Assembly (NCBI GenBank): GCA_036436775.1
Contig: GCA_036436775.1_3676.1
Strand: one strand, 5' to 3'
From: a phage
DNA: 64,000 bases
Below are positions 6,495-63,980 of this stretch, piece by piece. The position numbers and the translations under genes are program-made. Within the stretch, counting starts at the first letter, position 1; the number at the start of each line of letters is the position of its first letter. A model generated the notes under the pieces. It did no database searches. It had not been told where the DNA came from and was given only the letters and a program-made list of their open reading frames with translations.

Positions 6495-6497
6495 TTG

Positions 6498-7890: not shown

Positions 7891-7920
7891 TTGACAAACA
7901 GGTAAAGCTTTAGATATTAT
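7891..7920 (+). promoter_or_regulatory. Sigma70-like promoter (TTGACA, AT-rich -10)
   Basis: TTGACA at 7891 followed 17 nt later by ATATTAT; preceded by hairpin AAGGGTGG/CCACCCTT. Confidence 0.5.
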
Positions 7921-7947
7921 TATTATTGGACAAGAGAAGGAGATAGT

Positions 7948-8259: not shown

Positions 8260-8319
8260 AGGTAAATGTGAATCAGGTTTAAATAAATAGCTTTCAACTT
8301 CCAATATTAAGGATTTCTC

Positions 8320-9369: not shown

Positions 9370-9381
9370 ACATTAATTCTA

Positions 9382-9406
9382 AAGCCCTCTTCGGAGGGCT
9401 TTTATG
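9382..9406 (+). terminator. Rho-independent terminator
   Basis: AGCCCTC-TTCG-GAGGGCT hairpin followed by TTTTAT. Confidence 0.7.
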
Positions 9407-9420
9407 ATCTGGAGATTTGC

Positions 9421-9954: not shown

Positions 9955-10235
9955 AAATGAGTGCTAAGGACAAATTACACCAGTTAGCGCTAAAACGTCC
10001 TGTAACGCTTCCTGACGAGCTTAACTCCATTTATGATGCGATTGTAGGGGAGATACAAAATAAAGCGTTAGCAGGCTTTCTGGGATGCGGATTTTCGATA
10101 AATCTACCCTCGCATCTCTCAGATTACTTCCCGCATATTGTTGGGGATTTGAGGGCAGGAGGTCTGCAGGTAGATGTTGTTGGCATCTCTCCAGAGAAAA
10201 ATAATACGGTTGCCTACTTGACAGTAACCTGGTAG
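9951..10235 (+). CDS. Hypothetical protein
   Basis: ORF; start moved to ATG 9951 overlapping upstream stop (TGAAATG), GAGGT RBS. Confidence 0.55.
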   Translation: MKMSAKDKLHQLALKRPVTLPDELNSIYDAIVGEIQNKALAGFLGCGFSINLPSHLSDYFPHIVGDLRAGGLQVDVVGISPEKNNTVAYLTVTW

Positions 10236-10269
10236 TTGTGTATTGTTGTTCTCAACAAGGGGGTCATTT

Positions 10270-10509
10270 ATGTACAAGTCATTTTCAATTTACTCAAGGC
10301 AGGCGAAACACTACACAGAGATCCTGATTACTCAGAAAAAATCTGTAGAAGGTGAGTGGGAATATCACCATAAAATGTTACGTCCAGATTGGGTTTTTGA
10401 TAGACTTATTGCCATGATTCCTCTTGGGGAAGTATACCCTCTGACAGGCGGGAGGGATGCTTGGGATTTAATTGATTACATAGATTCATTTAAGGAGCCC
10501 AGTGTATGA
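10270..10509 (+). CDS. Hypothetical protein
   Basis: ORF; start moved to ATG 10270 with AAGGGGG RBS. Confidence 0.55.
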   Translation: MYKSFSIYSRQAKHYTEILITQKKSVEGEWEYHHKMLRPDWVFDRLIAMIPLGEVYPLTGGRDAWDLIDYIDSFKEPSV

Positions 10510-10904
10510 AGATTGAGATCACTAAAGAAGGTAAGAAAGTGTCTGGAGACTATGCAACAGTAATTCGAGATTTAATGTTTGAAACCACCAAGTTCGGCAC
10601 ATCTAAAGTTGGTCAAACTGTTAGTGTGCAAGGCAATATCACCACAGGGGAGAAGATAATCATTGTAATCAAGGGGCAGGATCCTGTGGAAGGAACAGTG
10701 GGCCGAGGAGGATACCTGTGCATTTCTGAAGAGCCACGTATGCTGGTGGCTGACCACACTACAGGTGGGAAACGTGTGTGCGAGGCGGATGAGGTAATGA
10801 TTATTAAACCTGTTGATCCAGATGATCCAGCAACTTGGGTGGTAGGAAATGAAATCTTCTCCTTAGAAGAGTTATCCTTCCCAGCCCCACGCTCTGTTCA
10901 GTAA
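10506..10904 (+). CDS. Hypothetical protein
   Basis: 132-aa ORF, ATGA overlap with upstream gene. Confidence 0.6.
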   Translation: MKIEITKEGKKVSGDYATVIRDLMFETTKFGTSKVGQTVSVQGNITTGEKIIIVIKGQDPVEGTVGRGGYLCISEEPRMLVADHTTGGKRVCEADEVMIIKPVDPDDPATWVVGNEIFSLEELSFPAPRSVQ

Positions 10905-10943
10905 TAATTTATCTTGCCAGGGACGGTAGAAGCAGGAGGTAGC

Positions 10944-11177
10944 ATGAAAGTTAAATTTCTTACAGATTTAGGGTACCCTTCCTTGGTTGACTGCGTTGGT
11001 AAAATTGTGGAAGCAAAACGGCTATCTGCAAACGAGAATGTTGTCCTGGTTAAGGGAAAGGATTTACTAGCTGCAGGTGCAGAGTCTGGCAGGATCTCTC
11101 CTGACTATACATATTACCTATCTTTAAGTAATCTGCCAGAACGAGGCGGCAAAGGCCTTGAAGTTGTGGAGGAGTGA
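10944..11177 (+). CDS. Hypothetical small acidic protein (paralog family, ...LLAAGA...VEVVEE)
   Basis: ORF; start at ATG 10944 with GGAGGT RBS; shares motif with ORFs at 14607, 14821, 16697, 16965. Confidence 0.6.
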   Translation: MKVKFLTDLGYPSLVDCVGKIVEAKRLSANENVVLVKGKDLLAAGAESGRISPDYTYYLSLSNLPERGGKGLEVVEE

Positions 11178-11182
11178 CAGGT

Positions 11183-11707
11183 ATGCTTCTTATTAACTGG
11201 GAAGACCTCTATGGGGACAAAGACCCTGTTGCGTTTGTTGATCGTAGATGGAGATATACTGAAGAACAACTGGCTGCAAAAAATTTAACTGCGAAACGCA
11301 GAAAGATTATCCAGTGCAAGTACAAATACGCACAGTTTGCTGCAAAAGTGTCTCCACAAATCGAGAGCTTTGTACTTAAATTGTATGACGAGTATCTCAA
11401 ATTCAAATTGGATTTTGTGCAGGTATACCGTGCACAGGTACGCCCAGATACCAGCATTTGCAGATGGAAGGTTGTTTGTGACGGTAAAGCTTTGCCGATC
11501 AGCTTGACAATTGAGCAGCGTTGGGGGTATCATGAGTGTGGTCTGTATGAGACTTGGGATGTCATTGTAGATCCTGCTAAGTACCTGAACACAGAGGAGC
11601 TGGAATATATCAATAAGGTTATTCTAGATATGTTTTTCAACTACACCCGTGAAAACTCCGAGAAAGAACGAGATAATTTTCTTGACACCATCAGCAACCA
11701 TCTGTAG
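11183..11707 (+). CDS. Hypothetical protein
   Basis: ORF; start moved to ATG 11183 with GTGGAGGAG RBS. Confidence 0.6.
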   Translation: MLLINWEDLYGDKDPVAFVDRRWRYTEEQLAAKNLTAKRRKIIQCKYKYAQFAAKVSPQIESFVLKLYDEYLKFKLDFVQVYRAQVRPDTSICRWKVVCDGKALPISLTIEQRWGYHECGLYETWDVIVDPAKYLNTEELEYINKVILDMFFNYTRENSEKERDNFLDTISNHL

Positions 11708-11737
11708 TATATAATTTAACCTACAAAGGGAGGACTA

Positions 11738-11974
11738 ATGAGTATAGATGTTGCGCTAATAGGTTACCTGGTAATAGCCGTTATAACGGCAGTATTCTTG
11801 ACAGGTGTATGCATCGTGTCCACACGAAGGGTGAAGTTTGATGATTTTATCACTATCATCACTGCTGCACCTTTTTGGCCTGTTGTTATCTTCATCGTGA
11901 TAATGTGCCTGGTGGATTACTACAAGAATACCCGTAAGGAGAAAAAGGAGAGCAGGAATGGAGACTGCACCTAA
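11738..11974 (+). CDS. Small membrane protein
   Basis: 78-aa ORF with two hydrophobic segments; AGGGAGGA RBS. Confidence 0.6.
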   Translation: MSIDVALIGYLVIAVITAVFLTGVCIVSTRRVKFDDFITIITAAPFWPVVIFIVIMCLVDYYKNTRKEKKESRNGDCT

Positions 11975-12193
11975 AACTGTTTATACTGTTCTTAAAGAGA
12001 TTGCGTTCTACGCAGATCTTAGCCAGGCACCTTTATGGGAAAAGAGCATGTATTTAAAATGGTGCATTAATTTAGGGAGATCTTCCGGTGTTTCAAGCCA
12101 TGTTTATTGAAATGCTATCTGGGGTATTGTTACTGGTAACCATCTTAGGTGGTGCAGTTCTGATGTATAACTATCTTGAAAAAGGAGACAGCA

Positions 12194-50801: not shown

Positions 50802-51143
50802 CTACTGAAGGTCTTCAGAGTCAAGCTCAAAAAGAATCAAACTGTGCATGCTTGCAGAGAGATCAACGCACCCTGCAATAATAAGGGTCTGATAGTAAGG
50901 TTCAGCACCCTCAATGTCTTCGTTAAAATCTACAACAAGATAGTCACCTTTGTTAAAGGTGTATTTGTCCGATGTAAACGCAAAACCTGCCCAGTCCCCT
51001 ACTGCAGGATCTTTATCAGTCACCTTTGTTAGCAGTAGGTCTTTTTCACGAGATCTTTTAGTAAAATCGTGAATCACAACATCCTTCTCTTCAGGAGTTG
51101 GACTACCACACACGTAGTTAACTATATTTCTCCACAAACTCAT
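50802..51143 (-). CDS. Hypothetical protein
   Basis: 113-aa ORF overlapping helicase stop. Confidence 0.6.
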   Translation of the reverse strand: MSLWRNIVNYVCGSPTPEEKDVVIHDFTKRSREKDLLLTKVTDKDPAVGDWAGFAFTSDKYTFNKGDYLVVDFNEDIEGAEPYYQTLIIAGCVDLSASMHSLILFELDSEDLQ

Positions 51144-52510
51144 ACGTCCCCCTCTTCTGCTCTGGTTTCAAAATCTTTCCTGACAATTTTGTCTAAGTCA
51201 GGGAATGTTGTATTGTAAAACTCTACGACTCGCGGGTCAACAATAATATCAACTTCTCTTAGTGGACGCAACAAGTTTATCCCTTGTATTGTCTTAACTC
51301 GACTCAAAGCAACATACGTCATCCCAGGAGAGAAAGCTCCGTTCTTTCCAAGGTCTAGGTTGTAACAATCTAGCGTAAGTCCTTGACTTTTATGAGATGT
51401 TACGGCGTACCCAGATTTTAGAGGAAGTTGCTTGTATGACCCAATCACCACCCTCTCTATAAACTTCTCCATCTTCCTTTCTGCAATGTTGTATCTTTGA
51501 GATGGCTTATACTCGTTATTCTCCCACAACCTTTGCTCTATGTCAACCTGTGTTCCATCTTCAAGCTCCACCACCACCGCCTTGTTCTTAAATTTAACAA
51601 TTGTGGCACGTGTTCCGTTAACATAATAAGGTACTTTGTGCGTCGGGTCAACATCGTTGGCGGTTATCATAACCTTCATGCCAATTTTCAACTTCATCTC
51701 CTGCTCAACTGGCAGGGTGGAGGGAAACTTACCTTTCATTTCACCAGTGTATACCTTTTCTGGGGCGTTGATGGCATCATAGAACCTTCTGTTCACTTCC
51801 TCCGCTTGTTTGTTGGTGGCGCAAATTGTGAGAGCGTCTGTTGGTACACCGCCTTTGTAACAACGAGCATTAAGTTCTGCTACAACCTCTTTTATGCGAC
51901 GACCCTCACGAACACAGTTGAGCATTGTGGCAAATCGAATAGACTCCTGTCGGAACTGATCTACTAGGGCTATGTTGTGGAGGTCAAGCTCTTTCCAAGA
52001 TTCGGTATAGCAACACAGGTCCGTATGGTAGAAGTTGAAGTAGGCTTCCTTCTCCATAGAAGAGACAACAGGAGGTGCTTGGTAAAAATCGCCAAACAAT
52101 ATGACCTGTATGCCTCCGAAAGGTTTGTCATTTTTTCGAAGGAAGCGGAGTTTCCTATCCATCTCTATAAACTTATCAGCACGAATCATAGAGATTTCAT
52201 CGATAATTAGGATGGTAAATGCCTTGCTTTTCAAAGGCTTTGCTGTTTTTGCCCTTATTGCAGTCCAGTCTGACTCCATGCTCACACCTGCTGCAAGATC
52301 GAATGTTCGGTGTGCTGTTGCTCCATTAACGTTTAATGCGGCTACCCCTGTCGGGGCAACCGTTATGCAAGAGTCTCCATACATGGACTGGATCATGTTG
52401 ATGAGATACGTCTTCCCACAACCTGCGGGTCCTGAAACGAAGACATTCTCACCGCTCATGATTGCAATGAGGGCAGCATCTGTGCCTACGTCATACTGCC
52501 CTTTTTCCAT
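51140..52510 (-). CDS. SF1 DNA helicase (Dda/RecD-like)
   Basis: 456-aa ORF; Walker A SGPAGCGKTY, Walker B ILIIDEISM, C-terminal TSHKSQGLTLD motif. Confidence 0.65.
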   Translation of the reverse strand: MEKGQYDVGTDAALIAIMSGENVFVSGPAGCGKTYLINMIQSMYGDSCITVAPTGVAALNVNGATAHRTFDLAAGVSMESDWTAIRAKTAKPLKSKAFTILIIDEISMIRADKFIEMDRKLRFLRKNDKPFGGIQVILFGDFYQAPPVVSSMEKEAYFNFYHTDLCCYTESWKELDLHNIALVDQFRQESIRFATMLNCVREGRRIKEVVAELNARCYKGGVPTDALTICATNKQAEEVNRRFYDAINAPEKVYTGEMKGKFPSTLPVEQEMKLKIGMKVMITANDVDPTHKVPYYVNGTRATIVKFKNKAVVVELEDGTQVDIEQRLWENNEYKPSQRYNIAERKMEKFIERVVIGSYKQLPLKSGYAVTSHKSQGLTLDCYNLDLGKNGAFSPGMTYVALSRVKTIQGINLLRPLREVDIIVDPRVVEFYNTTFPDLDKIVRKDFETRAEEGDV

Positions 52511-53715
52511 TACGCCTCCTCGTAGATAATGTCGATGATGTTACCATCACGGTCAACTACGTATTCAATCGGATCGCCATCTTTGCGTGATTCCGGTGCT
52601 GCTACGATTTCGTAGCGGCATGCACGGCACTTAGCACTGTTGTGTTGGTATGGCACACTAACCACATCCGCAGGGTCAACCATAACCATCATTACGGTGC
52701 CATAGCCAGCTGCATACTCTTTGCTGGCGCAGTGCAGGCCATAAGAACACGCAGCTTCCGGATCATCTTCTACAAAGTTACGAGGCATGGATACAAAAGC
52801 ACCCTGGTATTGTGGAACTTTACCGCTGTGCCAATCCACCCACTTGCCTCCGTTAAACTGAACCCCTTTATAGCAAATGATTCGACCATCTTCTGCAACC
52901 TGGATGTCATTAGCCTGCATGAAATCGTAGAGCATGTTCACAGATTTTGCAGACGGGTTGCGTAGCAGACGGACAAGGAATTTAACATATCGGTCGTCCA
53001 GTGTTCCATCTACATAATCTTCCTCAATTTTCTTTGCAATGGTAGATTGCATCTCTACACCGTAGTAATAGAGCTTACCATCTTTCATAATCAGGTTGTC
53101 TGCAAGTGTAGTGAACTCATTCTTGCGTTCCAACCAGACAAGGATTTCACCAATTGCCTCGTCATATTTCTGAACAGAGATATGGTCGAAGACTTTCTGG
53201 TAAACTTCCTCACTTTCACTGCGGCGAATTTCAAAAATACCTTCGTTGCAGGTGATCTGGAGAAGTTCTCCACAAATAACTACTAAAGGCTCTATGCTTC
53301 GAGTCTGTTGTTGAGACACACTGCTTACCACCTCCAGCACCGGATCTTTGACTTCTACTGAAGGTTCTTCTGACTTGATTGCTACTCCAGTGAACCCCAC
53401 ACCGTGAACAACGCACAGTGGGTATACCACACTCCAACGTTTAACGGAACCTTCTCCTGAATCTAAGATCATGGCGTACTTACCGTTGTCTTCCAGTCCG
53501 TAGCGGAATAAACGGGCCTCTTCGCGGGTTTCAAAATCCTCACGGGTATAGCAGACACTATCTCGGTCAGGATCAAACAGCTCTGGGGCACCCACTGCCA
53601 GTGTCCATGTTGTAGTACCTTTCTCAATAGCACATGTGAAACCCTTCTTCTCAAGTTCTGCACGGCGGTCGCGTGCTTCTTTACGAGTTTTGAAATGTTC
53701 GTAGATGAAAATCAT
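52510..53715 (-). CDS. rIIB-like protein (tentative, by adjacency to rIIA-like gene)
   Basis: 401-aa ORF immediately downstream of GHKL-ATPase gene; no diagnostic motif recognised. Confidence 0.35.
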   Translation of the reverse strand: MIFIYEHFKTRKEARDRRAELEKKGFTCAIEKGTTTWTLAVGAPELFDPDRDSVCYTREDFETREEARLFRYGLEDNGKYAMILDSGEGSVKRWSVVYPLCVVHGVGFTGVAIKSEEPSVEVKDPVLEVVSSVSQQQTRSIEPLVVICGELLQITCNEGIFEIRRSESEEVYQKVFDHISVQKYDEAIGEILVWLERKNEFTTLADNLIMKDGKLYYYGVEMQSTIAKKIEEDYVDGTLDDRYVKFLVRLLRNPSAKSVNMLYDFMQANDIQVAEDGRIICYKGVQFNGGKWVDWHSGKVPQYQGAFVSMPRNFVEDDPEAACSYGLHCASKEYAAGYGTVMMVMVDPADVVSVPYQHNSAKCRACRYEIVAAPESRKDGDPIEYVVDRDGNIIDIIYEEA

Positions 53716-53725
53716 AGCTGTCTCC

Positions 53726-55708
53726 TTATTTGGTGTTATTCTTTGCGTCGATCAGTTCACGGTATTCAATCATAGCAGGAGTGTCCCAATATTTCAAGCC
53801 TGCATGCTTCAAAAGTGGATATTTCTTTTCCAATCTTGCAATATAGGCCTTCCCGCACTTGACTCGGTTGGCGATTAAGATTTTGGCACGATGATTTAGC
53901 TCACTGTGCTTCCACGTGGTGTTACCTTCCCACTTGTGGAAATGTGGCCGATAATTTCCAAAATCTTGCATGGGAATAATTTTCCCTAATTGTCTATACA
54001 GGCTGTCATAAGAAGTCTCATTTGCTGCACGGGTCAGTAAGAATTTCCAAGCATCCTCTTTCAACAGGTGCTCCACATTCTTCTCTGTAACATACTGGCA
54101 ATCAGGATCAGTCCAAAGCAGACGAGATTCAGATACCAGATACAGATCTTCACCTTCAGGAATCTGAAGTGCCGCACGCACACGGTCATAATCTTGCTGG
54201 TAGATGTTACTCATCTGCCCCAGCCAACAACTTCCACGTTGGATATCACCCTCATAAGGGATGCAGTGTTTAATCTTCCGGAACTCTGCCTTAGTAATAC
54301 GCTCACGGCGGAAGTAACCATCCTTTTCAAGTTTTTTAACCCAATAACCTGGCTCATAACGAGTTTTTGTTTCACCTTTCTTGACAGGTCGGCGAGGGAG
54401 CTCTGATAACAATTTGACCGTATCTGCAAAGAACGGGTGGTGTGCCGCTTCTTTAAACTCTTCCACCAGATCCGTGTTCCGGCAATAGAAAACGTTGCGT
54501 CCGGTGATCTCGCTTAAATAGTTGCACTTATTTCGGTTATATTTGCCGTCTCCGTCGTTAAATACTAAATAGACTCCCCGTAAGAACTCTGACTTTCCGT
54601 AACGAGCATAGCCTATGCGGCCCTTATTTAAGCCGCCAGCGAAAATTTCACAATCGCCTAAGTCACCAAGCCCTGTTTCTTCCCAACGGTTCCACATAAA
54701 GTTTTTGCCGAAGATGTGTCCGAACACACCACTATTCTTCATCATTTCACGTGCTTCTGCGGAGGTTTTTGCCGTCTCCAGTTCTGCAACAACTTCTGCC
54801 CCGCGAAGACGTATACCTTCTTTGACAAAGGCCTCCAGGCGATCCTGGAATCCACCGTCGTCATGGCCCTCTATGGTCCATTCGCGCCCAGGGTTAATAT
54901 TGCAATCCCCGATAGGGATCTCTACACAGATTGCAGGGTAGTCTGTCAATGTTTCCAGAAACTTAGAGCGGTAAGGTTGGTGTCCCATCACCACACGGCT
55001 CTCATCAGAGCTGGTATAACCTTTCAGGATAGTCATTTTCCAACCATCTTTCTCGTAGCGATACTGCGCCTCAACCTTGTCACCTTCCAGCATCTTACTG
55101 GTCATAGGGTCGGTAACGGTAAACGGAAACTTTGCATAGCGTAGGCATGACGCAATAGCAGTGCGATATTTCAGAACATGCTCTTTCTTAACATGGAACT
55201 GAACTTTTACCCCGTTGTGCTCTTCAGTCTTCCGCTCGCGGATCTTGGTAACGTTTGGGATACCCTGATCCAAGAACAACAGATATGTGCTTTCAACACC
55301 GTTGTGCACACTGATCACATCGAAAGTGTCCACCATGCTGAACGGGGCCTTTGAACCTACACCTTTATTACCTACCAGAGCGTTGCTGTTGCGCTTGGTT
55401 GACTCCCCGAGGTTCATGAAAGTGTTGCGGACCATCTCTTCTGACATGCCCAATCCAACATCCTGCACAAAGAAGTATGGTTCAAGGTCTGTAGGAGAGT
55501 GAATGATGATCGGTACATCACCCCGTCCAGACTCAACATGGGAGTCCACAGCATTGAAGATTGGTTCACGGCAGCTTGCCAGCACCTTATCTTCGTAAAT
55601 CCCTTTAATGATTAGCCCAAAAGTCTCTTTGTTCAGAGAAATTGAGCCCCTGGTGACCTCCATATTTCCGGTCAGTACTGCTTTAGTTTCATTACTGTTT
55701 ACAATCAT
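53726..55708 (-). CDS. rIIA-like protein with N-terminal GHKL (Bergerat-fold) ATPase domain
   Basis: 660-aa ORF; N-box EPIFNAVDSH, G1 box VQDVGLGMS, G2 box GNKGVGSKAPF. Confidence 0.55.
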   Translation of the reverse strand: MIVNSNETKAVLTGNMEVTRGSISLNKETFGLIIKGIYEDKVLASCREPIFNAVDSHVESGRGDVPIIIHSPTDLEPYFFVQDVGLGMSEEMVRNTFMNLGESTKRNSNALVGNKGVGSKAPFSMVDTFDVISVHNGVESTYLLFLDQGIPNVTKIRERKTEEHNGVKVQFHVKKEHVLKYRTAIASCLRYAKFPFTVTDPMTSKMLEGDKVEAQYRYEKDGWKMTILKGYTSSDESRVVMGHQPYRSKFLETLTDYPAICVEIPIGDCNINPGREWTIEGHDDGGFQDRLEAFVKEGIRLRGAEVVAELETAKTSAEAREMMKNSGVFGHIFGKNFMWNRWEETGLGDLGDCEIFAGGLNKGRIGYARYGKSEFLRGVYLVFNDGDGKYNRNKCNYLSEITGRNVFYCRNTDLVEEFKEAAHHPFFADTVKLLSELPRRPVKKGETKTRYEPGYWVKKLEKDGYFRRERITKAEFRKIKHCIPYEGDIQRGSCWLGQMSNIYQQDYDRVRAALQIPEGEDLYLVSESRLLWTDPDCQYVTEKNVEHLLKEDAWKFLLTRAANETSYDSLYRQLGKIIPMQDFGNYRPHFHKWEGNTTWKHSELNHRAKILIANRVKCGKAYIARLEKKYPLLKHAGLKYWDTPAMIEYRELIDAKNNTK

Positions 55709-56205
55709 TTATTGCGCTCCTTGTAGTAGATATGGCTCCCGAATTGAGCTGTCCTCTGCATCTTTTTTGCCCATTTCGGTCGTACTTTGGTTGTATGGTA
55801 GTGTGTTGCTCCACATGTTATATCCATAGCCATGTATGCAACATGGTTGTTATTATAGACCTTTAGAAGCATCTTTGCAAGACTTTTAGCGTGATCCCAT
55901 GAATCTTTTTCTGTCACCTTAAAAGTTTTGCCGTAGTTTGTCCACGAAAACTGATTAGGTTGGTAGACAATCTTTCTTATAGTGTCTGGGTATTTGGGAT
56001 GAGATTTCCTGTTTAGGGTGGCAAACCCAGATGCCAGCATACCCATCGTGCCATCCCCTCTAGCTTCCCTGTAGATATTGCATGCTAGAATGTTTTCCTT
56101 AGTATCTGATGGCTTGCAAGTATGGTATACTTTTTGTTTTGGTGCTGCAACAACAGGCAGCGATAAAAATGCGCTCAAAATAATAGCAAAGATCTTAATT
56201 TTCAC
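55705..56205 (-). CDS. Secreted cell-wall hydrolase (SleB/CwlJ-like) with signal peptide
   Basis: 166-aa ORF; N-terminal signal peptide MKIKIFAIILSAFLSLPVVAAP; motif IYREARGDG...ATLNR...YPDTIRKIVYQPNQFSW. Confidence 0.6.
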   Translation of the reverse strand: MKIKIFAIILSAFLSLPVVAAPKQKVYHTCKPSDTKENILACNIYREARGDGTMGMLASGFATLNRKSHPKYPDTIRKIVYQPNQFSWTNYGKTFKVTEKDSWDHAKSLAKMLLKVYNNNHVAYMAMDITCGATHYHTTKVRPKWAKKMQRTAQFGSHIYYKERNK

Positions 56206-56253
56206 AATAACTCCAAATAGAAAATCCCCGCCGAAGCGGGGTGGTCTTAGAAA

Positions 56254-56634
56254 TTAATCGTAGTGTGCCAAAATCTCTCCGTCGTTGCAAGTTCCCTCTA
56301 CAAAGTTATGAAGATTCATGCACTCATCTTGATAGAAGAATTTACCGCTTTTCAGCCGTAAGCCAAACAACTCCGCATCTCCACGATGGCAAGCCTCTAC
56401 AAGTTCATAGATTTCATACGGCAACTCTCCGTCGTCATGGAAGAACCCAGCCTTATCGTTGACATAGATGAAGAAATAATCACTGCTATCGCAAGCGTCC
56501 AATATTTTAAACCAGATTTCATCTACATCTTTTTCTCGGATATCGATCACGCAAGTGGAGCTGCATTCGTACTCCTTCTCCGGCTCCTCGGTCAATACCA
56601 CCAGGTAGTTTCCCCGCTTACCTACTTTAGCCAT
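56254..56634 (-). CDS. Hypothetical Cys-rich acidic protein
   Basis: 126-aa ORF with GGAGG RBS. Confidence 0.6.
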   Translation of the reverse strand: MAKVGKRGNYLVVLTEEPEKEYECSSTCVIDIREKDVDEIWFKILDACDSSDYFFIYVNDKAGFFHDDGELPYEIYELVEACHRGDAELFGLRLKSGKFFYQDECMNLHNFVEGTCNDGEILAHYD

Positions 56635-56643
56635 ACAACCTCC

Positions 56644-57828
56644 TTAAGCTTTAGCCAAAATGGCGCTAAACTCTTCACCAAACTCTTTTACAATCTTCAT
56701 CAGGTTTGGGTATGCTTTGATCAGCTGAGCAACAATCTTGTCACGACCTTTACCGATAAGCAAGGCATTTCCTAAGGCATTAGGTTTCATCATCGCCATA
56801 AAGACTGAGAATACAAAATCTCGGTTCTCGTCCTTGAAGTTTTCCCAAAGGAAATCGAGGAAGTTTGCCACGCAGCTGACAAGATCTTCGTCTGAGATAC
56901 TTGCATTTTCCATCATATTACGAATAGCGATACAACCTTCAGATCCAAGAATCCACAAGATGTCTGGCTGTTTAGGACCTACGTATTCTTTGCAACCTCC
57001 TGCCATAATCCGACCGATTTCCGGTAAGTTGCGTTTCTTGGTGTGGTAAGTCCAGATCTCTACCGCTGCAGTGTGACCAATAGCGCCTTGCAGAAGAACA
57101 CGGGCCATAGCGTCAGAAATAATACCACTGTCAAAATCGTGCAAAATATCAGATGCAGCAACCCAAGATCGCGGTGTGGCAAAAGATGGACAATTAATCT
57201 CAGCCATGGCCTCATAATTATCGATAGCTGATGGAACTCTTTTCAGATATCCAATTACAGAGGAGTGCACCCCATTAAGGAATGCGTAGTCCTCAATAAA
57301 CACCTCTGCATTGCTTGTAACTTCTACAATGATAAAACGGTTAGCCAGAGGGGCTTCGAGCGCCGAAAGAACCGCACCATCTGTAGAACGGTTACCAGCA
57401 GCCACAAAAACAGAGCCTTTAGGGAATGCATAGGTGCCGCACTTGTGGTCGAGCATAATTTGCATTGCAACCTTTTGCAGGTAGTTATCTGCATGAGTGA
57501 GCTCATCAAGAAAGATAATTCCGCTCCAGTCAGGATCCGCAGGCCAAAATTCTGGAATTGCAAACACTGTACGTGTAGTTCCATCCGCTTCTACAGGGAT
57601 AGGTAGCCCAGATAAGTCGGCAGGATCTTTATCTGACAGCCGCACGTCAACTAGGTTGTCATCTCGCTCACCGAACATATTGTCGGCGATCTGCTTCATC
57701 ACCTGGCTCTTTCCCACGCCCATTGGTCCTAAAATCAGGACAGATCGGTTATGACGCTGGGCAAACTGAATGATAGCTGGCAACTCACGGACAGTGATTT
57801 GACCACTTTCAAATACGTTTCTTGACAT
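56644..57828 (-). CDS. MoxR-type AAA+ ATPase
   Basis: 394-aa ORF; Walker A LILGPMGVGKSQ, Walker B IIFLDELTHAD. Confidence 0.7.
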   Translation of the reverse strand: MSRNVFESGQITVRELPAIIQFAQRHNRSVLILGPMGVGKSQVMKQIADNMFGERDDNLVDVRLSDKDPADLSGLPIPVEADGTTRTVFAIPEFWPADPDWSGIIFLDELTHADNYLQKVAMQIMLDHKCGTYAFPKGSVFVAAGNRSTDGAVLSALEAPLANRFIIVEVTSNAEVFIEDYAFLNGVHSSVIGYLKRVPSAIDNYEAMAEINCPSFATPRSWVAASDILHDFDSGIISDAMARVLLQGAIGHTAAVEIWTYHTKKRNLPEIGRIMAGGCKEYVGPKQPDILWILGSEGCIAIRNMMENASISDEDLVSCVANFLDFLWENFKDENRDFVFSVFMAMMKPNALGNALLIGKGRDKIVAQLIKAYPNLMKIVKEFGEEFSAILAKA

Positions 57829-58097
57829 TAGTAAAAGTCCTCTACTTGTGTGTAAGTGTTTTCAAAGTTTTCCAAAACAGATATCACATCGGATATGTCA
57901 ATATCATACGTGACTCTCCAGTTGTACGCAACCCTTTCTGCTGTTGCCTCTTCTGGCGCTAGTCGTCTGCTGGCATAAAAGAGTGTTGGAGTACACTTTC
58001 TTGCTTGCCCTCTAACTTTCCCATAATAATATCTGTGAATATCTTTGTCAAAATTTAACTCTTTTTCTGCACGAAGTTCATATTGCTGGTATAACAT
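57828..58097 (-). CDS. Hypothetical protein
   Basis: 89-aa ORF, TAATG overlap, GGAGTAGTAGAG RBS. Confidence 0.55.
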   Translation of the reverse strand: MLYQQYELRAEKELNFDKDIHRYYYGKVRGQARKCTPTLFYASRRLAPEEATAERVAYNWRVTYDIDISDVISVLENFENTYTQVEDFY

Positions 58098-58141
58098 CTC
58101 TACTACTCCTTAAGCAGCATCCTTGCCGCCATTCCTGCCCA

Positions 58142-58522
58142 CTAAAATGCAGTCCGAATCCAGACAAGGTTCTTATCTGCCCAATCATAGAGGCAAGTCA
58201 TTGCACTATTGAATTGCTCACACGGAGGATAATCTTCTTCCATCTGGCGCATAGCAGAGCCTTGTGGGTAAAGCTCCCGTGCTGCAAACCACGCGTCGTA
58301 GTCATCAACGGTGTCGAAGTAGTATACAACATCCTCCAACTCAGGATCGAACTTTGAACTATCAGGATCCAGTTGTTCAGGGAACTTGGAGCGTAACTTA
58401 CCAGCCACAATACTTGCCAACTCGCTAACATGCTTATTGTCCCACTCCACTAGCTTCCCGTCTTCAGTGATGCGTCCTAACCACTGATCATGAAGGTCAA
58501 CTGTTGTCTTCCACTGAGCCAT
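58142..58522 (-). CDS. Hypothetical protein
   Basis: 126-aa ORF with GAGGTGGACTGATA RBS. Confidence 0.6.
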   Translation of the reverse strand: MAQWKTTVDLHDQWLGRITEDGKLVEWDNKHVSELASIVAGKLRSKFPEQLDPDSSKFDPELEDVVYYFDTVDDYDAWFAARELYPQGSAMRQMEEDYPPCEQFNSAMTCLYDWADKNLVWIRTAF

Positions 58523-58524
58523 TA

Positions 58525-58782
58525 TCAGTCCACCTCTTCTTCTCGTTGTAGTTCAAGGTACCCGTAGGTCTGGACATCTTGAAGGGTGTGGAACTCCCCA
58601 TCTGCCGCTAAGGCACGAACAACTTGGCACAAAACCTTATGAGGAACTTCATCCAGACCCAGATTCAGTGCAGGGAACACCTTATCTAAGTCAACAAAAT
58701 AAACGAACTGTAGCTCACCAGCTTCAAAAGGTGTATCTTCAATAAACATCTTCTCGGCATTAGTCAAGATCTGCACTTTCAT
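58525..58782 (-). CDS. Hypothetical protein
   Basis: 85-aa ORF with GAGGAGGTAGA RBS. Confidence 0.6.
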   Translation of the reverse strand: MKVQILTNAEKMFIEDTPFEAGELQFVYFVDLDKVFPALNLGLDEVPHKVLCQVVRALAADGEFHTLQDVQTYGYLELQREEEVD

Positions 58783-59138
58783 TATTCTACCTCCTCTTCT
58801 TTTTCTTCGGCATTAGTTTCATGGCTACCCCACTCTGGAGTTTCCACCTCGATAGTAAACTCACGCACTACACGGTAATTGCCCATGAAGCGCTCCACTT
58901 CGTCAAGGCTTACGGAGAAGCCATTGGCAACCAGGTCTGCAGCACCCTCTTCTACCAGGTAGTCCAGATTGGCTTCCAAAGCTTCAGGCTCAAACCCTGT
59001 TAATGCAATCAGATAACCTTCCCCTTCATCAGGGAGGACAATACATCCCAACTGATTTTCTTTGAAAAGGCAGTGACCATCATTGTTGATTGGGTGTTCA
59101 TTGCAGTAAATAGCTGCACGATAAGTAACTTTAGACAT
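58782..59138 (-). CDS. Hypothetical acidic protein beginning MSKVTYRA
   Basis: Start set at ATG with AAGGAGACC RBS; first 8 codons lie in a 27-bp inverted repeat shared with the + strand gene at 60979. Confidence 0.55.
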   Translation of the reverse strand: MSKVTYRAAIYCNEHPINNDGHCLFKENQLGCIVLPDEGEGYLIALTGFEPEALEANLDYLVEEGAADLVANGFSVSLDEVERFMGNYRVVREFTIEVETPEWGSHETNAEEKEEEVE

Positions 59139-59141
59139 CGG
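59115..59141 (-). repeat. 27-bp perfect inverted repeat, copy A (CCGATGTCTAAAGTTACTTATCGTGCA on - strand)
   Basis: Reverse complement of + 59115-59141 is identical to + 60979-61005; covers a start codon and first 8 codons. Confidence 0.9.
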
Positions 59142-59151
59142 CAAGGTCTCC

Positions 59152-59430
59152 TTAGGCAATTGTCATTTTACATTCTTGAAATTTTAGCACAAGACGGTGA
59201 TTGTGTCTAGTGTCTAAAAAGGTTTTTTCAACCATCAGGCACACGGTATAACCGTCCATCTTGTTGACAACAAAATCTCCAGGGTGAGGGAGGATGTCCC
59301 CCGGATTGGGGAAACATAGTCCACTCAGAAAGGCATCGTCAGTGGTGGACTTAATAGATTTCCACACATTGTCTGCCTGAACATGTTCACCGACGTAATA
59401 TACATTACCACATGCCTTCATCATAGTCAA
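59152..59430 (-). CDS. Hypothetical protein
   Basis: 92-aa ORF, ATGA overlap with upstream gene. Confidence 0.55.
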   Translation of the reverse strand: MTMMKACGNVYYVGEHVQADNVWKSIKSTTDDAFLSGLCFPNPGDILPHPGDFVVNKMDGYTVCLMVEKTFLDTRHNHRLVLKFQECKMTIA

Positions 59431-60326
59431 ACCCTCGCATAAATTAAACTTGTATCAGTATACTTCTTTAATGGACAGATATCCGGCCCGTAGATGTAGT
59501 CATTGAACACCTCATCTATCCAAAGACTGCTCTTATACCCCATCATCTCCAAGACATCCATCTCTTCTTTAGTGAATTTATCACCGCTCTTGCAAGATGT
59601 CAATACCTCATTCTGTACTCTTGCTACCTCGAAGCGGTTATTGGCAATATCACTATTGGCGATCAAATACTCACCCAAAGGGTGTGCAGCATCAAAGATG
59701 CACAAAGGTCGGTTGACGTAATAGTCCCCGGGTGTGTAGAAATTATTCAGGTCCTTCACCAGAACATTCTTATCCGTCACCTCATTTATAACATCATGCA
59801 TACCGCACATCTTTATATGCTTGAGGATTCCATCTCCCATCACAAAATAAAAACTTGCTGAGATACCCTCGACATAGATCTTACTAGATCCGTTGTAGTT
59901 GTATTTTACGCGAATACTCACGGGGGTTTTTCCTGTCGCGTTAGCCATCATCCAAAGAAATGGCAGCTCATACTTCTCCTCTGAGGAAACAAAAGGTGAA
60001 GTTGCCAGAGATCGAAAACCTCCAGAGAAGTTGAAAGTTACAGAACCGCTCCGGCGGTATGATACTGCGTATTCTACTTTTATATCAACATATCCGTTGG
60101 AGTAAGTATGCCCTCCATTATCAAGGTATGTCCACTTATCAGACCCGGATACCAATCTACGCTCAATAACCTTCATCACTACAGGAATTAGCGGGTTGGT
60201 ACAAACCGCTTTTGAAGTAGCTTTAGCATCTAAAGCCTCGTAAATTGCAGAAAGGATGTCCCCAGCTGAAAGATTTGTTGTTATGTCCTGTTTCCACCGC
60301 GTACTAAAACTGTTAAGATTTGCCAT
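59427..60326 (-). CDS. Hypothetical protein (299 aa)
   Basis: ORF with AGGAGCACCCCC RBS; first gene of the - strand block, divergent from promoter at 60409. Confidence 0.6.
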   Translation of the reverse strand: MANLNSFSTRWKQDITTNLSAGDILSAIYEALDAKATSKAVCTNPLIPVVMKVIERRLVSGSDKWTYLDNGGHTYSNGYVDIKVEYAVSYRRSGSVTFNFSGGFRSLATSPFVSSEEKYELPFLWMMANATGKTPVSIRVKYNYNGSSKIYVEGISASFYFVMGDGILKHIKMCGMHDVINEVTDKNVLVKDLNNFYTPGDYYVNRPLCIFDAAHPLGEYLIANSDIANNRFEVARVQNEVLTSCKSGDKFTKEEMDVLEMMGYKSSLWIDEVFNDYIYGPDICPLKKYTDTSLIYARV

Positions 60327-60408
60327 GAGGGGGTGCTCCTATGTTAGTTTTATTTCTAATGGGTGCACTATATCGGAGATTCAGAGTAAAGTCAACACGT
60401 TTTTGATG

Positions 60409-60437
60409 TTGACATCTATTGAAACAATTGATACGAT
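60409..60437 (+). promoter_or_regulatory. Sigma70-like promoter TTGACA-N17-TACGAT
   Basis: Hexamers read directly; 30 nt upstream of ATG 60469. Confidence 0.55.
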
Positions 60438-60468
60438 TTCTTCACTTACAGAGCACGAGAGACAACTC

Positions 60469-61446
60469 ATGAATCTTGAAAAATATTATACACCAGAAGA
60501 GTTAGAGCGCCTGCTCAAAAAATATAGACGCAAACAGAATAATGCACGGAAACGAGATATAGAGTTCGACCTGTCATGGGAAGAATACCTCCTATTTGGT
60601 AAAAAACTTTTAGGAGATGGAGTATGCGACTATACCCTTATACCTTTTGACATGCACACAGATGAAAACGGGCTGGGAAATCCTTTCTACCCATCTCTGG
60701 AGCGGATAGATGATGAAGGTCCTTATGCGGTTGATAACTGTTGTGTGGTGGGATTGAGATGCAACTCTCTAAAGGACTGTCTGGTAGATAAAAAGACTGC
60801 AGTCTCGATTAAAGACGAAACTGATCGAAAAATTGTCCAGCAGATGATGCTCCACCTGAGCGAAGAGCGTATGGAGAAATTGAAAGGTGATTATACTTTT
60901 GAAGATTTCATCTTGCAATATGGAACGGAAGAGGATAAACTAGCACTCTTTGACGAAGAAGAGGAGGAAGATATGCTACCGATGTCTAAAGTTACTTATC
61001 GTGCACCCAAGAAGCACATTTCCGACATTGTAAACGAGCCTATCACAGAAGAGATTGAAGAAATGACGCAACAGGTGCATGAAGAGGAAAAAGAGACTCA
61101 GTGGGTCGAAGAGGAGCTTACAGAAGAGGTTCCTGCACTACCTGATGATGTTGAGATTGCCAAAGCTTACACTTTCTATTGTCAAGCGTTCTACGATGTA
61201 GGTATGAAAGTTGATCTGTCGTTCAGCCAATTTAAGAGTTCGTATATTCGCAAATGCTGTGCTTTAACTGGTGAACGTCTTGGAGCTGGACTTAAACCCC
61301 TGTTGGTGACCGACTGGAATAAAGGTTTCACTAAAGGAAACTTTATGGTAGTATCTCCAATTATGGAGAAAGCTATGACAGATCTCATGAAGACCACCCG
61401 CATGACAATGACCGAGTTGGCAGGTATTTTCAAACACGTTAAATAA
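60469..61446 (+). CDS. Hypothetical protein, possibly two in-frame cistrons (second start near 60975-60987)
   Basis: Continuous ORF from ATG 60469; internal strong GAGGAGG RBS + ATG at 60975 followed by MSKVTYRA inside the 27-bp repeat. Confidence 0.55.
   Translation: MNLEKYYTPEELERLLKKYRRKQNNARKRDIEFDLSWEEYLLFGKKLLGDGVCDYTLIPFDMHTDENGLGNPFYPSLERIDDEGPYAVDNCCVVGLRCNSLKDCLVDKKTAVSIKDETDRKIVQQMMLHLSEERMEKLKGDYTFEDFILQYGTEEDKLALFDEEEEEDMLPMSKVTYRAPKKHISDIVNEPITEEIEEMTQQVHEEEKETQWVEEELTEEVPALPDDVEIAKAYTFYCQAFYDVGMKVDLSFSQFKSSYIRKCCALTGERLGAGLKPLLVTDWNKGFTKGNFMVVSPIMEKAMTDLMKTTRMTMTELAGIFKHVK
60979..61005 (+). repeat. 27-bp perfect inverted repeat, copy B
   Basis: Identical to the reverse complement of 59115-59141. 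Confidence 0.9.
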
Positions 61447-61479
61447 TGACAGGGGCCAATGGCCCCTTCTGGAGTTTTA

Positions 61480-62940
61480 ATGGATAGCAGAAGTTCAGAA
61501 ATCATTGCCTCACAGAAAGATGATGCCTTGAGAATGTTGCAGGCTGCACGTATGTATCTCCTTGAAAAGCTGCCGTTTTATGGCACACTACTGTCAGGGT
61601 TGCAGTTCGTAGAAAACCACACATGGTGCTCCACCATGGCAACCGACCATAAACGCATCTATTACAGTCCTGAGTTCATTATGGGATTGGCTGATGAACG
61701 CAAGGCTATTCTTAAGGCTTCTCTGACTGACGAGCAGTTTGAGATGGCTGAAGTTTTCTATTCCCCAAAATCTGTGAAAGAGGTGGCCTTCCTTCTGTCA
61801 CATGAGGTGGGGCATATTATCTGTGATCACCTAGTCCGTGGTAAAAGCTTTGAGCCGGAACTGTTCAATATTGCTTGTGATCACGTTATCAACACAGGTC
61901 TTGTGGTTGACTTTAGCAAGCCTCCTTGTGTTTTCTTCCCGAAGGGGAAAAGCACTACGTTCGTGAAAGGTAAACCTTTTGGCTTCTTAGCCAGCTGCTA
62001 CTGCGATATGAAGTTTCATGGATGGATTGCTGAGAACGTTTATGCAGTTCTTGATAAGCAAAGAGATCAGAATAACGGTAAAAGTAAGAACGGTAAAGGT
62101 GAGAACTCTCAAGGGGATAAGCGACAAACAGATGATCACATGAGTGGGAACGGTGGCACCAGTGATGATCTTGGAAAAGCTATGGGGTATGATCAGCCAC
62201 AACCTGTAATCAGCCAATCTGATAAAGATCAGGCCATGCAGGACTCTGGTGATATGCTGGAGGCAGCAATGCAAGCGTCCGGAGGCCGTTGCCCTGAGGC
62301 GGTGCGTGAGTTTGTCAAGAACAGAGGTAAGCCTGTAATCAACTATATAGACATCATTAAGCAACGCATGTTGTCTAAACGAAAGGCTGAACTGACCTAC
62401 AGAAAACCTGGTCGCCGATCTGGGTCTTTGACCAGCACAATGCGAAAAGTTGGGGCTATAAACAAGAACCAGCACGTTATTGTTCCTGGTCGTAATCCGG
62501 AAAACACTATAGATATTGTGGTGGCTTTAGACGTTTCTGGCTCGATCTCTCAAAGAACTTTAAAGAAAATGTTCAATGAAATCACCGGATTGTGCAATCT
62601 GTATAAAGAGTTTAAGGTTACAATGTTCTGTTGGTCAACTGAGGTTGGAGAGGTTAAAGTATACACTCGCGGCAACATAGACGAGATGATTAACTATGAG
62701 GTCCACTCAACATGGGGCACAACAGCTGCTTGCGTGTTCGAGTATCTGGATGCCAACATACCGAATGCAAAAGATGTCATCGTCCTGACCGACCTATACT
62801 TTGAGCATAACTTTGAACAAAAGGCTGTTGACAACAAGTGGAAAAAGTACGATACTTTATGGGTTCTCACTGAAGGGTATAATAAAAATTATATCCCGAG
62901 CTTTGGGAAAACTGTGGAATTAATCGAGTACGCTAAGTAA
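61480..62940 (+). CDS. HExxH metallopeptidase-like N-domain fused to vWA (MIDAS) domain protein
   Basis: N-terminal SHEVGHIICDH (HExxH) and C-terminal VVALDVSGSIS (DxSxS) vWA motif; start set at ATG 61480 (first ATG lies in a hairpin). Confidence 0.65.
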   Translation: MDSRSSEIIASQKDDALRMLQAARMYLLEKLPFYGTLLSGLQFVENHTWCSTMATDHKRIYYSPEFIMGLADERKAILKASLTDEQFEMAEVFYSPKSVKEVAFLLSHEVGHIICDHLVRGKSFEPELFNIACDHVINTGLVVDFSKPPCVFFPKGKSTTFVKGKPFGFLASCYCDMKFHGWIAENVYAVLDKQRDQNNGKSKNGKGENSQGDKRQTDDHMSGNGGTSDDLGKAMGYDQPQPVISQSDKDQAMQDSGDMLEAAMQASGGRCPEAVREFVKNRGKPVINYIDIIKQRMLSKRKAELTYRKPGRRSGSLTSTMRKVGAINKNQHVIVPGRNPENTIDIVVALDVSGSISQRTLKKMFNEITGLCNLYKEFKVTMFCWSTEVGEVKVYTRGNIDEMINYEVHSTWGTTAACVFEYLDANIPNAKDVIVLTDLYFEHNFEQKAVDNKWKKYDTLWVLTEGYNKNYIPSFGKTVELIEYAK

Positions 62941-62955
62941 GAGAGGAGGTTATTT

Positions 62956-63219
62956 ATGGCAACAGAGTTAAAATTTGCATCAAACCGTAAAACTAAGAAG
63001 TATCTGTCCTCAGTGGCTCCAGGCACTGTGGTGATGTTTATTGATGAACTTGGGGATGTGAATACAGCACTTGTTGTAAAATCACATCCTGCAAACATAT
63101 ATGTTGGGGTATTTGACCTGTTCAGAAAGGTGTTTGTAGAACTACCTCACAGTTTGGTTGTTACAGAAATGGATGCCTGCATAGAAATTCTTGGCGAAGT
63201 TATGGTGGAGGAACAATAA
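62956..63219 (+). CDS. Small protein, tandem paralog 1 of 4
   Basis: 87-aa ORF with AGAGGAGG RBS; pattern ...GTVV...V.E...ILGE shared with next three ORFs. Confidence 0.6.
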   Translation: MATELKFASNRKTKKYLSSVAPGTVVMFIDELGDVNTALVVKSHPANIYVGVFDLFRKVFVELPHSLVVTEMDACIEILGEVMVEEQ

Positions 63220-63482
63220 TGGCTACTAGCATTGTATTCAATTCTAAGGTGAAGAACAAAAAGCGTGCAGACAGTTTTCCGTGTGGGACCGTGGTAAGTT
63301 GCGACGGAGACGGCATTCAAAACATAGTTATGATTGTCAAAACAGGAGAACATTGTGTGTGGGGGTTCGATTTAGAAAATAATGAGTTGTACGATCTGCC
63401 GCCAAACATGAAAGTTACAGAGCTTGACACCAAAATTACCATCCTTGGAGAGACAAGCTATTCAAAAGAAGGAGGAGAATAA
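63219..63482 (+). CDS. Small protein, tandem paralog 2 of 4
   Basis: 87-aa ORF, TAATG overlap. Confidence 0.6.
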   Translation: MATSIVFNSKVKNKKRADSFPCGTVVSCDGDGIQNIVMIVKTGEHCVWGFDLENNELYDLPPNMKVTELDTKITILGETSYSKEGGE

Positions 63483-63745
63483 TGACCACAAAAATCACTA
63501 TCGCAGAGCCGAAAGCTAACACTCAGCCTATCGAAAAGTTTAAGTGCGGTGAGGTGGTAACATTCACACCAGATAATGAAGATGCTAAGATTTTCGCAAT
63601 GGTCACAGCTGAGTGGATGTGTGACAACACCACACAAGTACTACGTTTCGATACCTACCTCACAGATGAGATCCGAAACGATAAGATCGTGACAGGTGTG
63701 GACACTGAAATTATTTTCTACAAGAGCTTTTTAGAGGGTTTCTGA
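63482..63745 (+). CDS. Small protein, tandem paralog 3 of 4
   Basis: 87-aa ORF, TAATG overlap. Confidence 0.6.
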   Translation: MTTKITIAEPKANTQPIEKFKCGEVVTFTPDNEDAKIFAMVTAEWMCDNTTQVLRFDTYLTDEIRNDKIVTGVDTEIIFYKSFLEGF

Positions 63746-63746
63746 T

Positions 63747-63980
63747 ATGGCAAAAATTCGTAAATTATCCAGCAATCAGGTTGTGAAAGACTTTGAATCT
63801 GGAGAGATTCTGTATGTTCGTGATGCAGATGACGAAGGTGAAGATCTTGTTATGTTGGTGGGGCACGCTGAGGACGGATGCATCCAAGCTGTTTTTCTTG
63901 AAACAGCTATGGTGCACTGGATAGAGCTGGACTTGAAAGCACGAAAACCTAAAGCAGAAATCCTGATCTACGAAGACTAG
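63747..63980 (+). CDS. Small protein, tandem paralog 4 of 4
   Basis: 77-aa ORF. Confidence 0.55.
   Translation: MAKIRKLSSNQVVKDFESGEILYVRDADDEGEDLVMLVGHAEDGCIQAVFLETAMVHWIELDLKARKPKAEILIYED

Follow-up and report, generated by a model that had tools for sequence, protein, structure and literature searches.

A conserved gene pair for a MoxR-type ATPase and a zincin-like vWA protein, orthologous to N4 gp24/gp25 and split onto opposite strands in rV5-like coliphages

The subject of this analysis is a pair of genes in a 64,000-nucleotide stretch of phage DNA (NCBI GenBank assembly GCA_036436775.1, contig GCA_036436775.1_3676.1), the whole of which is called the window here. The first gene, at 56644-57828 on the minus strand, encodes a MoxR-type AAA+ ATPase of 394 residues; the second, at 61480-62940 on the plus strand, encodes a 486-residue protein that joins a zincin-like (HExxH) N-terminal domain to a C-terminal von Willebrand factor A (vWA) domain with a metal ion-dependent adhesion site (MIDAS). 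A preliminary description, made from the sequence alone, had proposed the two as a candidate chaperone- or protease-like module, and the interpretation as a MoxR plus HExxH-vWA module is supported here. The window comes from a Vequintavirus, an rV5-like coliphage: its 7-kb region 56000-63000 is 96.5-97.8% identical, over the full length, to many such phages, including MiataMamis, WalterGehring (Bas51), LL12, Murica, EdH4 and FFH2. Within a phage collection, 122 records match this region, 115 of them in one co-linear piece that spans 80% of the query or more. Near-identical GenBank records already label the ATPase gene 'MoxR ATPase' or 'ATPase', and the partner gene 'putative metallopeptidase' or 'VWA-like domain containing protein'. 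Given these annotations and two earlier accounts of the pair in the literature (PMC4193335, PMC7824862), the feature is not new, and what was noticed in this window correctly reproduces annotation that already existed. What had been missed is that the genes are the known gp24/gp25 core pair of phage N4, already annotated in near-identical genomes, and that their layout is a derived split. The present work makes the orthology to N4 gp24/gp25 explicit, puts numbers on the gene linkage and recognizes that split.

The ATPase, a match to PHROG phrog_1297 ('ATPase', 1.4e-110), consists of an AAA+ core and lid (residues ~1-270) and a helical C-terminal domain specific to the phage family (~270-394). 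The MoxR-like Walker motifs reported earlier are present as GPMGVGKS (Walker A, residues 34-41) and IIFLDE (Walker B, 104-109), and among 56 homologues G37, G39, K40, S41, D108 and E109 are invariant, as are N146/R147, N163/R164 ('ANRF') and P219/R220. Judged by position, N146 would act as sensor 1, R164 of the 'ANRF' motif as the arginine finger and R220 of the 'PR' motif as sensor 2. A helix-2 insert (D61-x-R63-L64...P69-x-D71...G74) is strictly conserved, and a predicted beta-hairpin (75-90) follows it.

Profile hidden Markov models recognize the vWA and peptidase-like domains of the partner directly, but they recognize the ATPase as MoxR only indirectly, through homologues, family profile and fold, with Pfam AAA_5 below threshold on the window protein. 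Single-sequence searches of the PDB and NCBIfam returned P-loop-level matches to ClpB and ClpC only, so that the family profile and the predicted fold were needed for the assignment. Homologues at 31-36% identity (expect value (E) ~1e-45) carry Pfam AAA_3, AAA_5 and sometimes bpMoxR; of the 56 family members aligned, 26 show AAA_5 and AAA_3 at E up to 0.001, and bpMoxR is found in 10. When the family profile is compared with the PDB, Midasin comes out on top (5e-11), in an alignment that spans Walker A to the arginine finger. The AlphaFold2 model (predicted local distance difference test (pLDDT) 86.4) is MoxR-like as well: its best Foldseek match is NorQ (E 6e-8, template modelling score 0.65 by target length), including NorQ-NorD vWA complexes, and further matches are CbbQ2 (6l1q), cso-CbbQ (5c3c) and the MoxR protein CHU_0153 (2r44). 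On the strength of homologues, profile search, predicted fold and invariant residues, gene 56644-57828 encodes a MoxR-class AAA+ ATPase. The protein probably forms a hexameric ring.

Both open reading frames of the preliminary description are present, that of the partner with a choice of start at 61459 or 61480. A GGAG Shine-Dalgarno sequence lies five bases upstream of 61480, in agreement with the GenBank annotation, and the alternative ATG at 61459 falls within a hairpin. The two domains read from the motifs hold up: Pfam assigns DUF2201_N ('putative metallopeptidase domain') at 99.7 bits (cut-off 23.2; 3e-28) and DUF2201 ('VWA-like domain') at 43.7 bits (cut-off 26.4; 3.6e-11). In the AlphaFold2 model (pLDDT 82.4) an N-terminal helical domain with a three-stranded sheet is followed by a disordered insert, a linker and a compact C-terminal vWA domain. 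The insert (residues 202-227) is of low complexity and variable in length across the family.

Conservation in the partner was read from an alignment of 184 sequences, comprising the window protein, 150 listed representatives and the homologues collected earlier. The peptidase motif is H108-E-V-G-H112-xxxx-H117, followed by N130xAxD134xxxN138. H108 and H112 are each kept in 182/184 and E109 in 174/184; H117 is found in 179/184 and D134 in 183/184, so that H108, H112, H117, D134 and N138 all fall within 179-183 of 184. The candidate third metal ligand is H117, or else D134 on the next helix. The MIDAS is complete, with D351, S353 and S355 each in 184/184, T414 in 181/184 and D438 in 183/184, and a basic motif, P310-x-[RK]312-[RK]313, is conserved in the linker just ahead of the vWA domain. 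In fold searches the Rossmann-like vWA domain resembles NorD, Midasin and BchD. Structure prediction thus bears out the vWA part of the protein, with vWA matches filling the result lists of both fold searches. The likeness of the N-terminal domain to peptidases comes from other sources. Its predicted secondary structure (helices 13-30, 99-118 and 126-144; strands 42-45, 53-55 and 59-62) comes in the order expected of a minimal M48-like zincin; weak matches to Peptidase_M48 (best 8e-4) occur in 17 of 37 family members, while 21 of the 37 also match VWA_CoxE; and weak PDB profile matches (E 0.04-0.4) to M48, HtpX, BepA and selecase are located on the HExxH helix. In zincins the glutamate of HExxH is the general base of hydrolysis and not a metal ligand, and the conservation of E109 therefore favours an active hydrolase. 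We consider it fairly probable, from these motifs, that the N-terminal domain works as one.

An exhaustive partner profile search of public data clustered at 50% identity gave 33,322 representatives at E up to 0.001, and 14,623 at up to 1e-30. The PADLOC defence-system models gave no match to the partner and P-loop-level matches only (E above 5e-4) to the ATPase, and neither NCBIfam nor PADLOC has a family matching the pair. The partner also matches PHROG phrog_1314 at 5.8e-123. This family is labelled 'HNH endonuclease', a label that has spread to RefSeq, including N4 gp25 (5165-6307 of our N4 locus, L089); other records name the gene 'anti-sigma factor' or 'tail protein'. No HNH nuclease family matched the partner in any scan made here, and since the protein is composed of DUF2201_N and a vWA domain, the HNH label looks like a propagated error.

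Both proteins are orthologous to neighbouring gene products of phage N4. With hhalign, the window ATPase aligns to N4 gp24 with a probability of 99.9% (E 3.9e-36) and the partner to gp25 with 100% (E 6.4e-51); homology is near full-length for both proteins, and the catalytic and MIDAS motifs are common to both phages, although identity is only ~23-28%. The gene order is shared too: in the window (51140-57828) as in the N4 locus (L089), the pair is followed in one order by rIIA, rIIB, a superfamily 1 helicase and DNA polymerase. That an rV5-like myovirus and the podovirus N4 have this order in common suggests an exchanged or anciently shared replication module. The differences are equally clear. 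In N4, gp24 and gp25 are adjacent and co-oriented, 167 nt apart, and the N4 middle RNA polymerase transcribes both, whereas the window genes are split on opposite strands behind predicted sigma70-like promoters. In comparison with N4, the rV5 clade has extra partner inserts at ~70-97 and ~316-329 and a longer ATPase C-terminus. Among 25 N4-like phages, gp24 ('unknown') and gp25 ('vWFA domain') belong to the 14 core genes and are middle transcripts (Chan et al. 2014, PMC4193335). A MoxR and metallopeptidase-vWA 'chaperone-cochaperone' pair was also described in group 2.2 jumbo phages (Iyer et al. 2021, PMC7824862). The jumbo phage phAPEC6 has the same two-protein architecture, gp264c matching DUF2201_N plus DUF2201, but there the genes are adjacent.

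The linkage of the two genes was surveyed in IMG/VR, where a scan with the ATPase alignment gave 80 loci, all of which were translated and searched with profiles of both families. The loci are counted without de-replication and come mostly from one environmental clade, and for this reason independent lineages were also examined singly. A partner gene of the DUF2201 type is present at 70 of the 80 loci. In 68 of the 70 it is the next gene downstream on the same strand, with gaps between the reading frames of -58 to 548 nt, and the split layout accounts for the remaining two, the rV5-like contigs L008 and L009. As for the ten loci lacking a partner, nine have less than 200 nt of contig beyond the ATPase, and the tenth (L037) has an inserted gene and then the contig end. 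On L037, a 340-residue reading frame (2961-3983) with a CxxxCxxC motif, radical-SAM-like as judged by eye, stands where the partner normally follows the ATPase.

The independent lineages agree with the survey. In N4, gp24 ('ATPase') adjoins gp25, and in phAPEC6 gp265c ('MoxR ATPase') adjoins gp264c ('N4 gp25-like'). On phage-like environmental contigs, the gene for a distant ATPase homologue (P0047) is directly followed by a DUF2201_N plus DUF2201 gene, with a 5'-3' exonuclease and a thymidylate synthase as neighbours. Pfam finds nothing in the gene that precedes the partner on a 578-kb jumbo-like contig and on an NCBI genome contig, but the family profile identifies it in both as an ATPase homologue (3.5e-80 and 4e-73). 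The pair also occurs outside phages: on a Paracoccaceae chromosome, an AAA_3/AAA_5 gene is directly upstream of a DUF2201 gene amid ordinary metabolic genes, with no phage genes near, and a scan of genome contigs with this Paracoccaceae partner returned only its source contig. Counts by tblastn in the phage collection, sorted by host genus and given for the two genes, are 214/216 for Escherichia, 102/108 for Pseudomonas, 26/26 for Pectobacterium and 17/17 for Cronobacter, and they diverge in Vibrio (49/103). The pair is kept in podoviruses, myoviruses, jumbo phages and bacteria. Functional pairing, which the preliminary description had drawn from domain co-occurrence, is supported by this co-occurrence and nearly constant adjacency, and from the observed linkage we infer that the two proteins very probably work together. 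The pair on the 578-kb jumbo-phage-like contig L006 (JGI contig Ga0495625_0000006; 592-7591) stands among HSP20, ClpS and ClpP genes, a neighbourhood that looks like a protein-quality-control cluster and fits a proteolytic or chaperone role.

The adjacent, co-oriented layout found almost everywhere else is absent from the window, where 3,651 nt separate the two genes on their opposite strands. The split is common to L008, L009 and the 115 of 122 near relatives, and a more distant relative (L010; 35% identity, 146-kb contig) retains adjacent genes, which places the origin of the split inside the rV5-like group. Opposite strands are the derived state, an ancestral two-gene operon having been divided, and the rV5-like lineage is the only one in which this has happened.

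Between the two genes, at 60327-60468, lies a divergent intergenic region in which a consensus scan predicts back-to-back sigma70-like promoters: a leftward one, TTGACT-17-TATAGT (60395-60367, minus strand), and a rightward one, TTGACA-17-TACGAT with an extended TG (60409-60437, plus strand). Both predicted -35 hexamers lie in the arms of an inverted repeat (60391-60413). The pair had been placed 'around a divergent promoter', and the divergent promoters are indeed predicted, but the two genes do not flank them immediately: the ATPase gene is the 7th of the leftward unit, 2.5 kb from the promoter region, and the vWA gene is the 2nd of the rightward unit, after a 325-residue Srd/HNH-like gene (GenBank: 'anti-sigma factor'). 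A terminator scan predicts an intrinsic terminator, CCCCGCTTCGGCGGGG with a T-rich tail (56226-56241, minus strand), which would close the leftward ATPase unit. Upstream of the ATPase gene, an 89-residue reading frame (57828-58097, minus strand) ends in a stop that overlaps the ATPase start codon (TAATG), an arrangement that suggests translational coupling of the two. This frame is annotated in LL12 and Bas51 and not in A51.2, and it is only a possible member of the module. It contains the best predicted sigma70-like promoter of the region, TTGACA-17-TATTAT (58051-58023, minus strand; 11/12 in the consensus scan), which could give the ATPase its own promoter. On the other side, the terminator scan and the sequence show a GC-rich hairpin, AGGGGCCATTGGCCCCT (61451-61467, plus strand), which separates the Srd-like gene from the vWA gene and may serve in attenuation or in RNA stability.

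The divergent promoter region is itself flanked by a perfect 27-nt inverted repeat (59115-59141 and 60979-61005), whose arms are separated by 1,837 nt. Each arm is read in frame as coding sequence for PMSKVTYRA. One covers the start of a 118/125-residue gene (58782-59159, minus strand); the other, inside the Srd-like 'anti-sigma' gene, is preceded by GAGG, so that translation might also start internally. LL12, A51.2 and WalterGehring conserve the repeat, and the IMG/VR contig L008 has one arm only. Possible origins are recombination or inversion, or a shared translation-initiation leader. We considered the repeat as the cause of the gene split and rejected it, because both genes lie outside its arms.

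On the present evidence we are inclined, somewhat cautiously, to regard the two gene products as the subunits of a single conserved phage machine, which would combine a MoxR ring and a zincin-vWA adaptor and act before or at the onset of assembly. The mechanism is modelled on the solved MoxR/vWA machines NorQ-NorD, CbbQ-CbbO and Rea1/Midasin. By this analogy the vWA domain of the partner would dock on the ATPase ring, where the conserved basic linker (P310-x-R312-R313) may contribute and the helix-2 insert of the ATPase probably takes part. The MIDAS would grip an acidic residue of the target protein, and ATP-driven movement of the ring would remodel the target, which might then be presented to the zincin domain for cleavage; alternatively, the ring movement might activate the zincin domain. 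Overall, this would amount to an ATP-dependent protease built from separate subunits. It would most likely work in the cytoplasm, no later than the onset of particle assembly, and its target would be a protein of the host or of the phage. That the target is met before assembly and is not a virion protein is a tentative suggestion, which we hold with slightly less than even confidence. Both window genes would be transcribed from sigma70-type promoters in the early replication region, as the preliminary description had placed them: rIIA, rIIB, a Dda/Pif1-like helicase, methyltransferases, a primase-helicase and DNA polymerase are encoded nearby. Early-to-middle action is favoured because of this gene position, the predicted promoters and the expression class of the N4 genes.

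Known systems resemble such a machine in part. NorQ and CbbQ are the best structural matches of the ATPase, they have a vWA partner with a MIDAS, and their ATPase and partner genes stand side by side. In contrast, NorD and CbbO are larger, have no HExxH domain and insert a vWA 'finger' into the ATPase pore, and their known clients, metalloenzymes or Rubisco, are absent from these phages; identity is ~17%. FtsH offers a functional analogy for an ATP-dependent zincin protease, in that an AAA+ motor is combined with an HExxH metallopeptidase. However, FtsH is an AAA+ ring of the classical AAA clade fused to an M41 zincin, one membrane-anchored chain that threads substrates, whereas here the motor is of the MoxR class, and the putative zincin, which is M48-like, belongs to a second chain that also brings a vWA adaptor. 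A virus-encoded pair is also found in Acidianus two-tailed virus, namely p618 (MoxR) and p892 (vWA), as cited in PMC7824862. That virus, likened here by description, is archaeal, its vWA partner has no peptidase domain, and its two proteins have a part in extracellular tail development. Deletion data for orf63 and orf66 of Bacillus phage 0305phi8-36 were considered as evidence on essentiality and rejected as inapplicable, since the MoxR subtype differs (bpMoxR plus AAA_lid_8) and the partner has no DUF2201 match.

Several points weigh against a two-subunit protease acting before assembly. Classical MoxR/vWA systems insert metals or remodel proteins and do not degrade them. Pfam AAA_5 scores 16.7 bits on the window ATPase, under its 22-bit cut-off. 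Coupled expression is not guaranteed for genes that lie on opposite strands with 3.65 kb between them. The vWA domain is compact (~150 residues) and has no evident internal NorD-like 'finger', and its docking mode may therefore differ from that of NorD; the recent structure of NorQ-NorD has the finger in the pore, a mode that its authors expect to be general for AAA+/vWA pairs (Kahle et al. 2026, PMC13036017). In the literature searched, we found no experimental work on any family member and no functional studies for DUF2201, PF13203, PF09967 or COG3864; a CRISPRi-ART study used EdH4 and N4 for capsid and rII genes only and holds no data on the pair, and papers on Vequintavirus proteomics and on daunorubicin have nothing on it. 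Finally, two findings connect the family with virions. In phAPEC6, the MoxR ATPase gp265c was detected by mass spectrometry in purified virions (6 peptides), and N4-like roseophages encode virion proteins beside their gp24/25 homologues (PMC4193335); both findings leave room for a role in virion assembly.

These last findings belong to a different account, in which the pair is an assembly chaperone with a maturation protease that acts late, aiding head or tail assembly and trimming structural proteins. Iyer et al. took the proteins of Acidianus two-tailed virus as their analogue when they proposed that the jumbo-phage pair serves virion assembly, including proteolytic processing (PMC7824862). 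The phAPEC6 genes lie near head-completion, neck and sheath genes, and in roseophage RPP1 a 'second structural module' with mid-infection expression adjoins the gp24/25 homologues (PMC4193335). The jumbo-phage proposal is, however, a hypothesis, and agrees less well with where the genes lie in rV5-like phages and N4. The N4 genes are middle genes, those of the window lie in the replication/early region behind predicted sigma70-like promoters, and the 64-kb window contains no recognizable virion structural genes. The neighbours in environmental phages and N4 are a 5'-3' exonuclease, thymidylate synthase and dCTP deaminase, and one bacterial chromosome has the cassette at a site with no phage genes around it. 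As to the virion data themselves, the phAPEC6 list also holds thymidylate synthase, so that carry-over of non-structural proteins is likely, and the vWA partner gp264c is absent from the portion of the virion table examined. We therefore regard a late assembly role as unlikely, if still worth serious attention.

Alternatively, the pair may load metal into a phage or host metalloenzyme, as NorQD, CoxDE, CobST and BchID do, with the HExxH domain holding or delivering the metal instead of cleaving protein. Such a role would suit the closest solved relatives of the ATPase, NorQ and CbbQ, the VWA_CoxE matches in 21 of 37 partners and the NorD- and BchD-like vWA fold, and the phage does encode metalloenzymes, e.g. 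a class III ribonucleotide reductase with its activase. However, no metalloenzyme partner is common to N4-like, rV5-like and jumbo phages and the bacterial cassette, the N-terminal domain resembles M48-type peptidases, and the catalytic glutamate of HExxH, which metal binding does not need, is kept in 174/184. With no client shared across lineages and this residue conserved, metal insertion appears improbable. That the genes act independently and occur together by coincidence is the least credible account, to which we give next to no weight: the opposite strands, the 3.65 kb and the eight genes between them in the window, seven to the left of the promoter gap and one to the right, would suit it, but 68 of 70 loci have the genes adjacent and co-oriented, podoviruses, myoviruses, jumbo phages and bacteria retain the pair, the per-genus counts are close for several genera (Escherichia, Pectobacterium and Cronobacter), and the split layout itself is retained by 115 of 122 near relatives.

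The interest of the pair lies in its spread. The partner family, with 33,322 clusters at 50% identity, is very large. N4-like phages have the pair in their 14-gene core, and every rV5-like coliphage examined retains it, while no reported function was found in the literature searched. The pair in rV5-like phages is a practical entry point for the whole family, since E. coli K-12 is a host of EdH4 and Bas51, among others, and EdH4 has already been the subject of RNA-targeting knock-down. A bolder and, in our judgement, rather unlikely idea is that the gp24/gp25 family is a new kind of multi-subunit ATP-dependent protease, used early to middle in infection by at least three major lineages of virulent phages to degrade or remodel one particular host protein complex, for takeover or counter-defence. 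If this were true, tens of thousands of bacterial homologues would share that chemistry for a still unrecognized cellular purpose.

Among the neighbouring genes, a SleB-type cell-wall hydrolase (Hydrolase_2, 3e-18) is encoded at 55705-56205 on the minus strand, as reported earlier. Its N-terminus (MKIKIFAIILSAFLSLPVVAAP) is hydrophobic and signal-peptide-like as judged by eye. The gene sits just past the predicted terminator of the ATPase unit, and its 3' end overlaps the start of rIIA by 4 nt; an exported hydrolase of this type in the early region, instead of in a lysis cassette, is unusual. The suggestion that it forms part of the ATPase/vWA module did not hold. We detected no link: a 126-residue gene and the predicted terminator (56226-56241) lie between it and the ATPase unit, and the hydrolase is not beside the pair in the other phages examined; it is on the intervening terminator and this absence elsewhere that we reject the connection.

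Elsewhere in the window, the region at ~1-12000 (plus strand) matches a part of Bas51 annotated with a class III anaerobic ribonucleotide reductase that is interrupted by homing endonucleases. The same part includes the ribonucleotide reductase activase, a PhoH-like ATPase and a 349-residue 'ClpP-like protease' (especially 8320-9369); given the latter, the phage may carry a second protease system. No tRNA genes were found in the window. Among the phage records, 16 named 'Campylobacter phage' (host C. jejuni) are ~97% identical to E. coli rV5-like phages, and their host assignment looks doubtful, contamination of the samples being another possibility. Directly downstream of the vWA gene, at 62956-63980 on the plus strand, four tandem genes encode proteins of 77-87 residues each. 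The first two are 38% identical, and the other two, alike in length and layout, show only 15-20% identity; the four are probably a small paralogue array.

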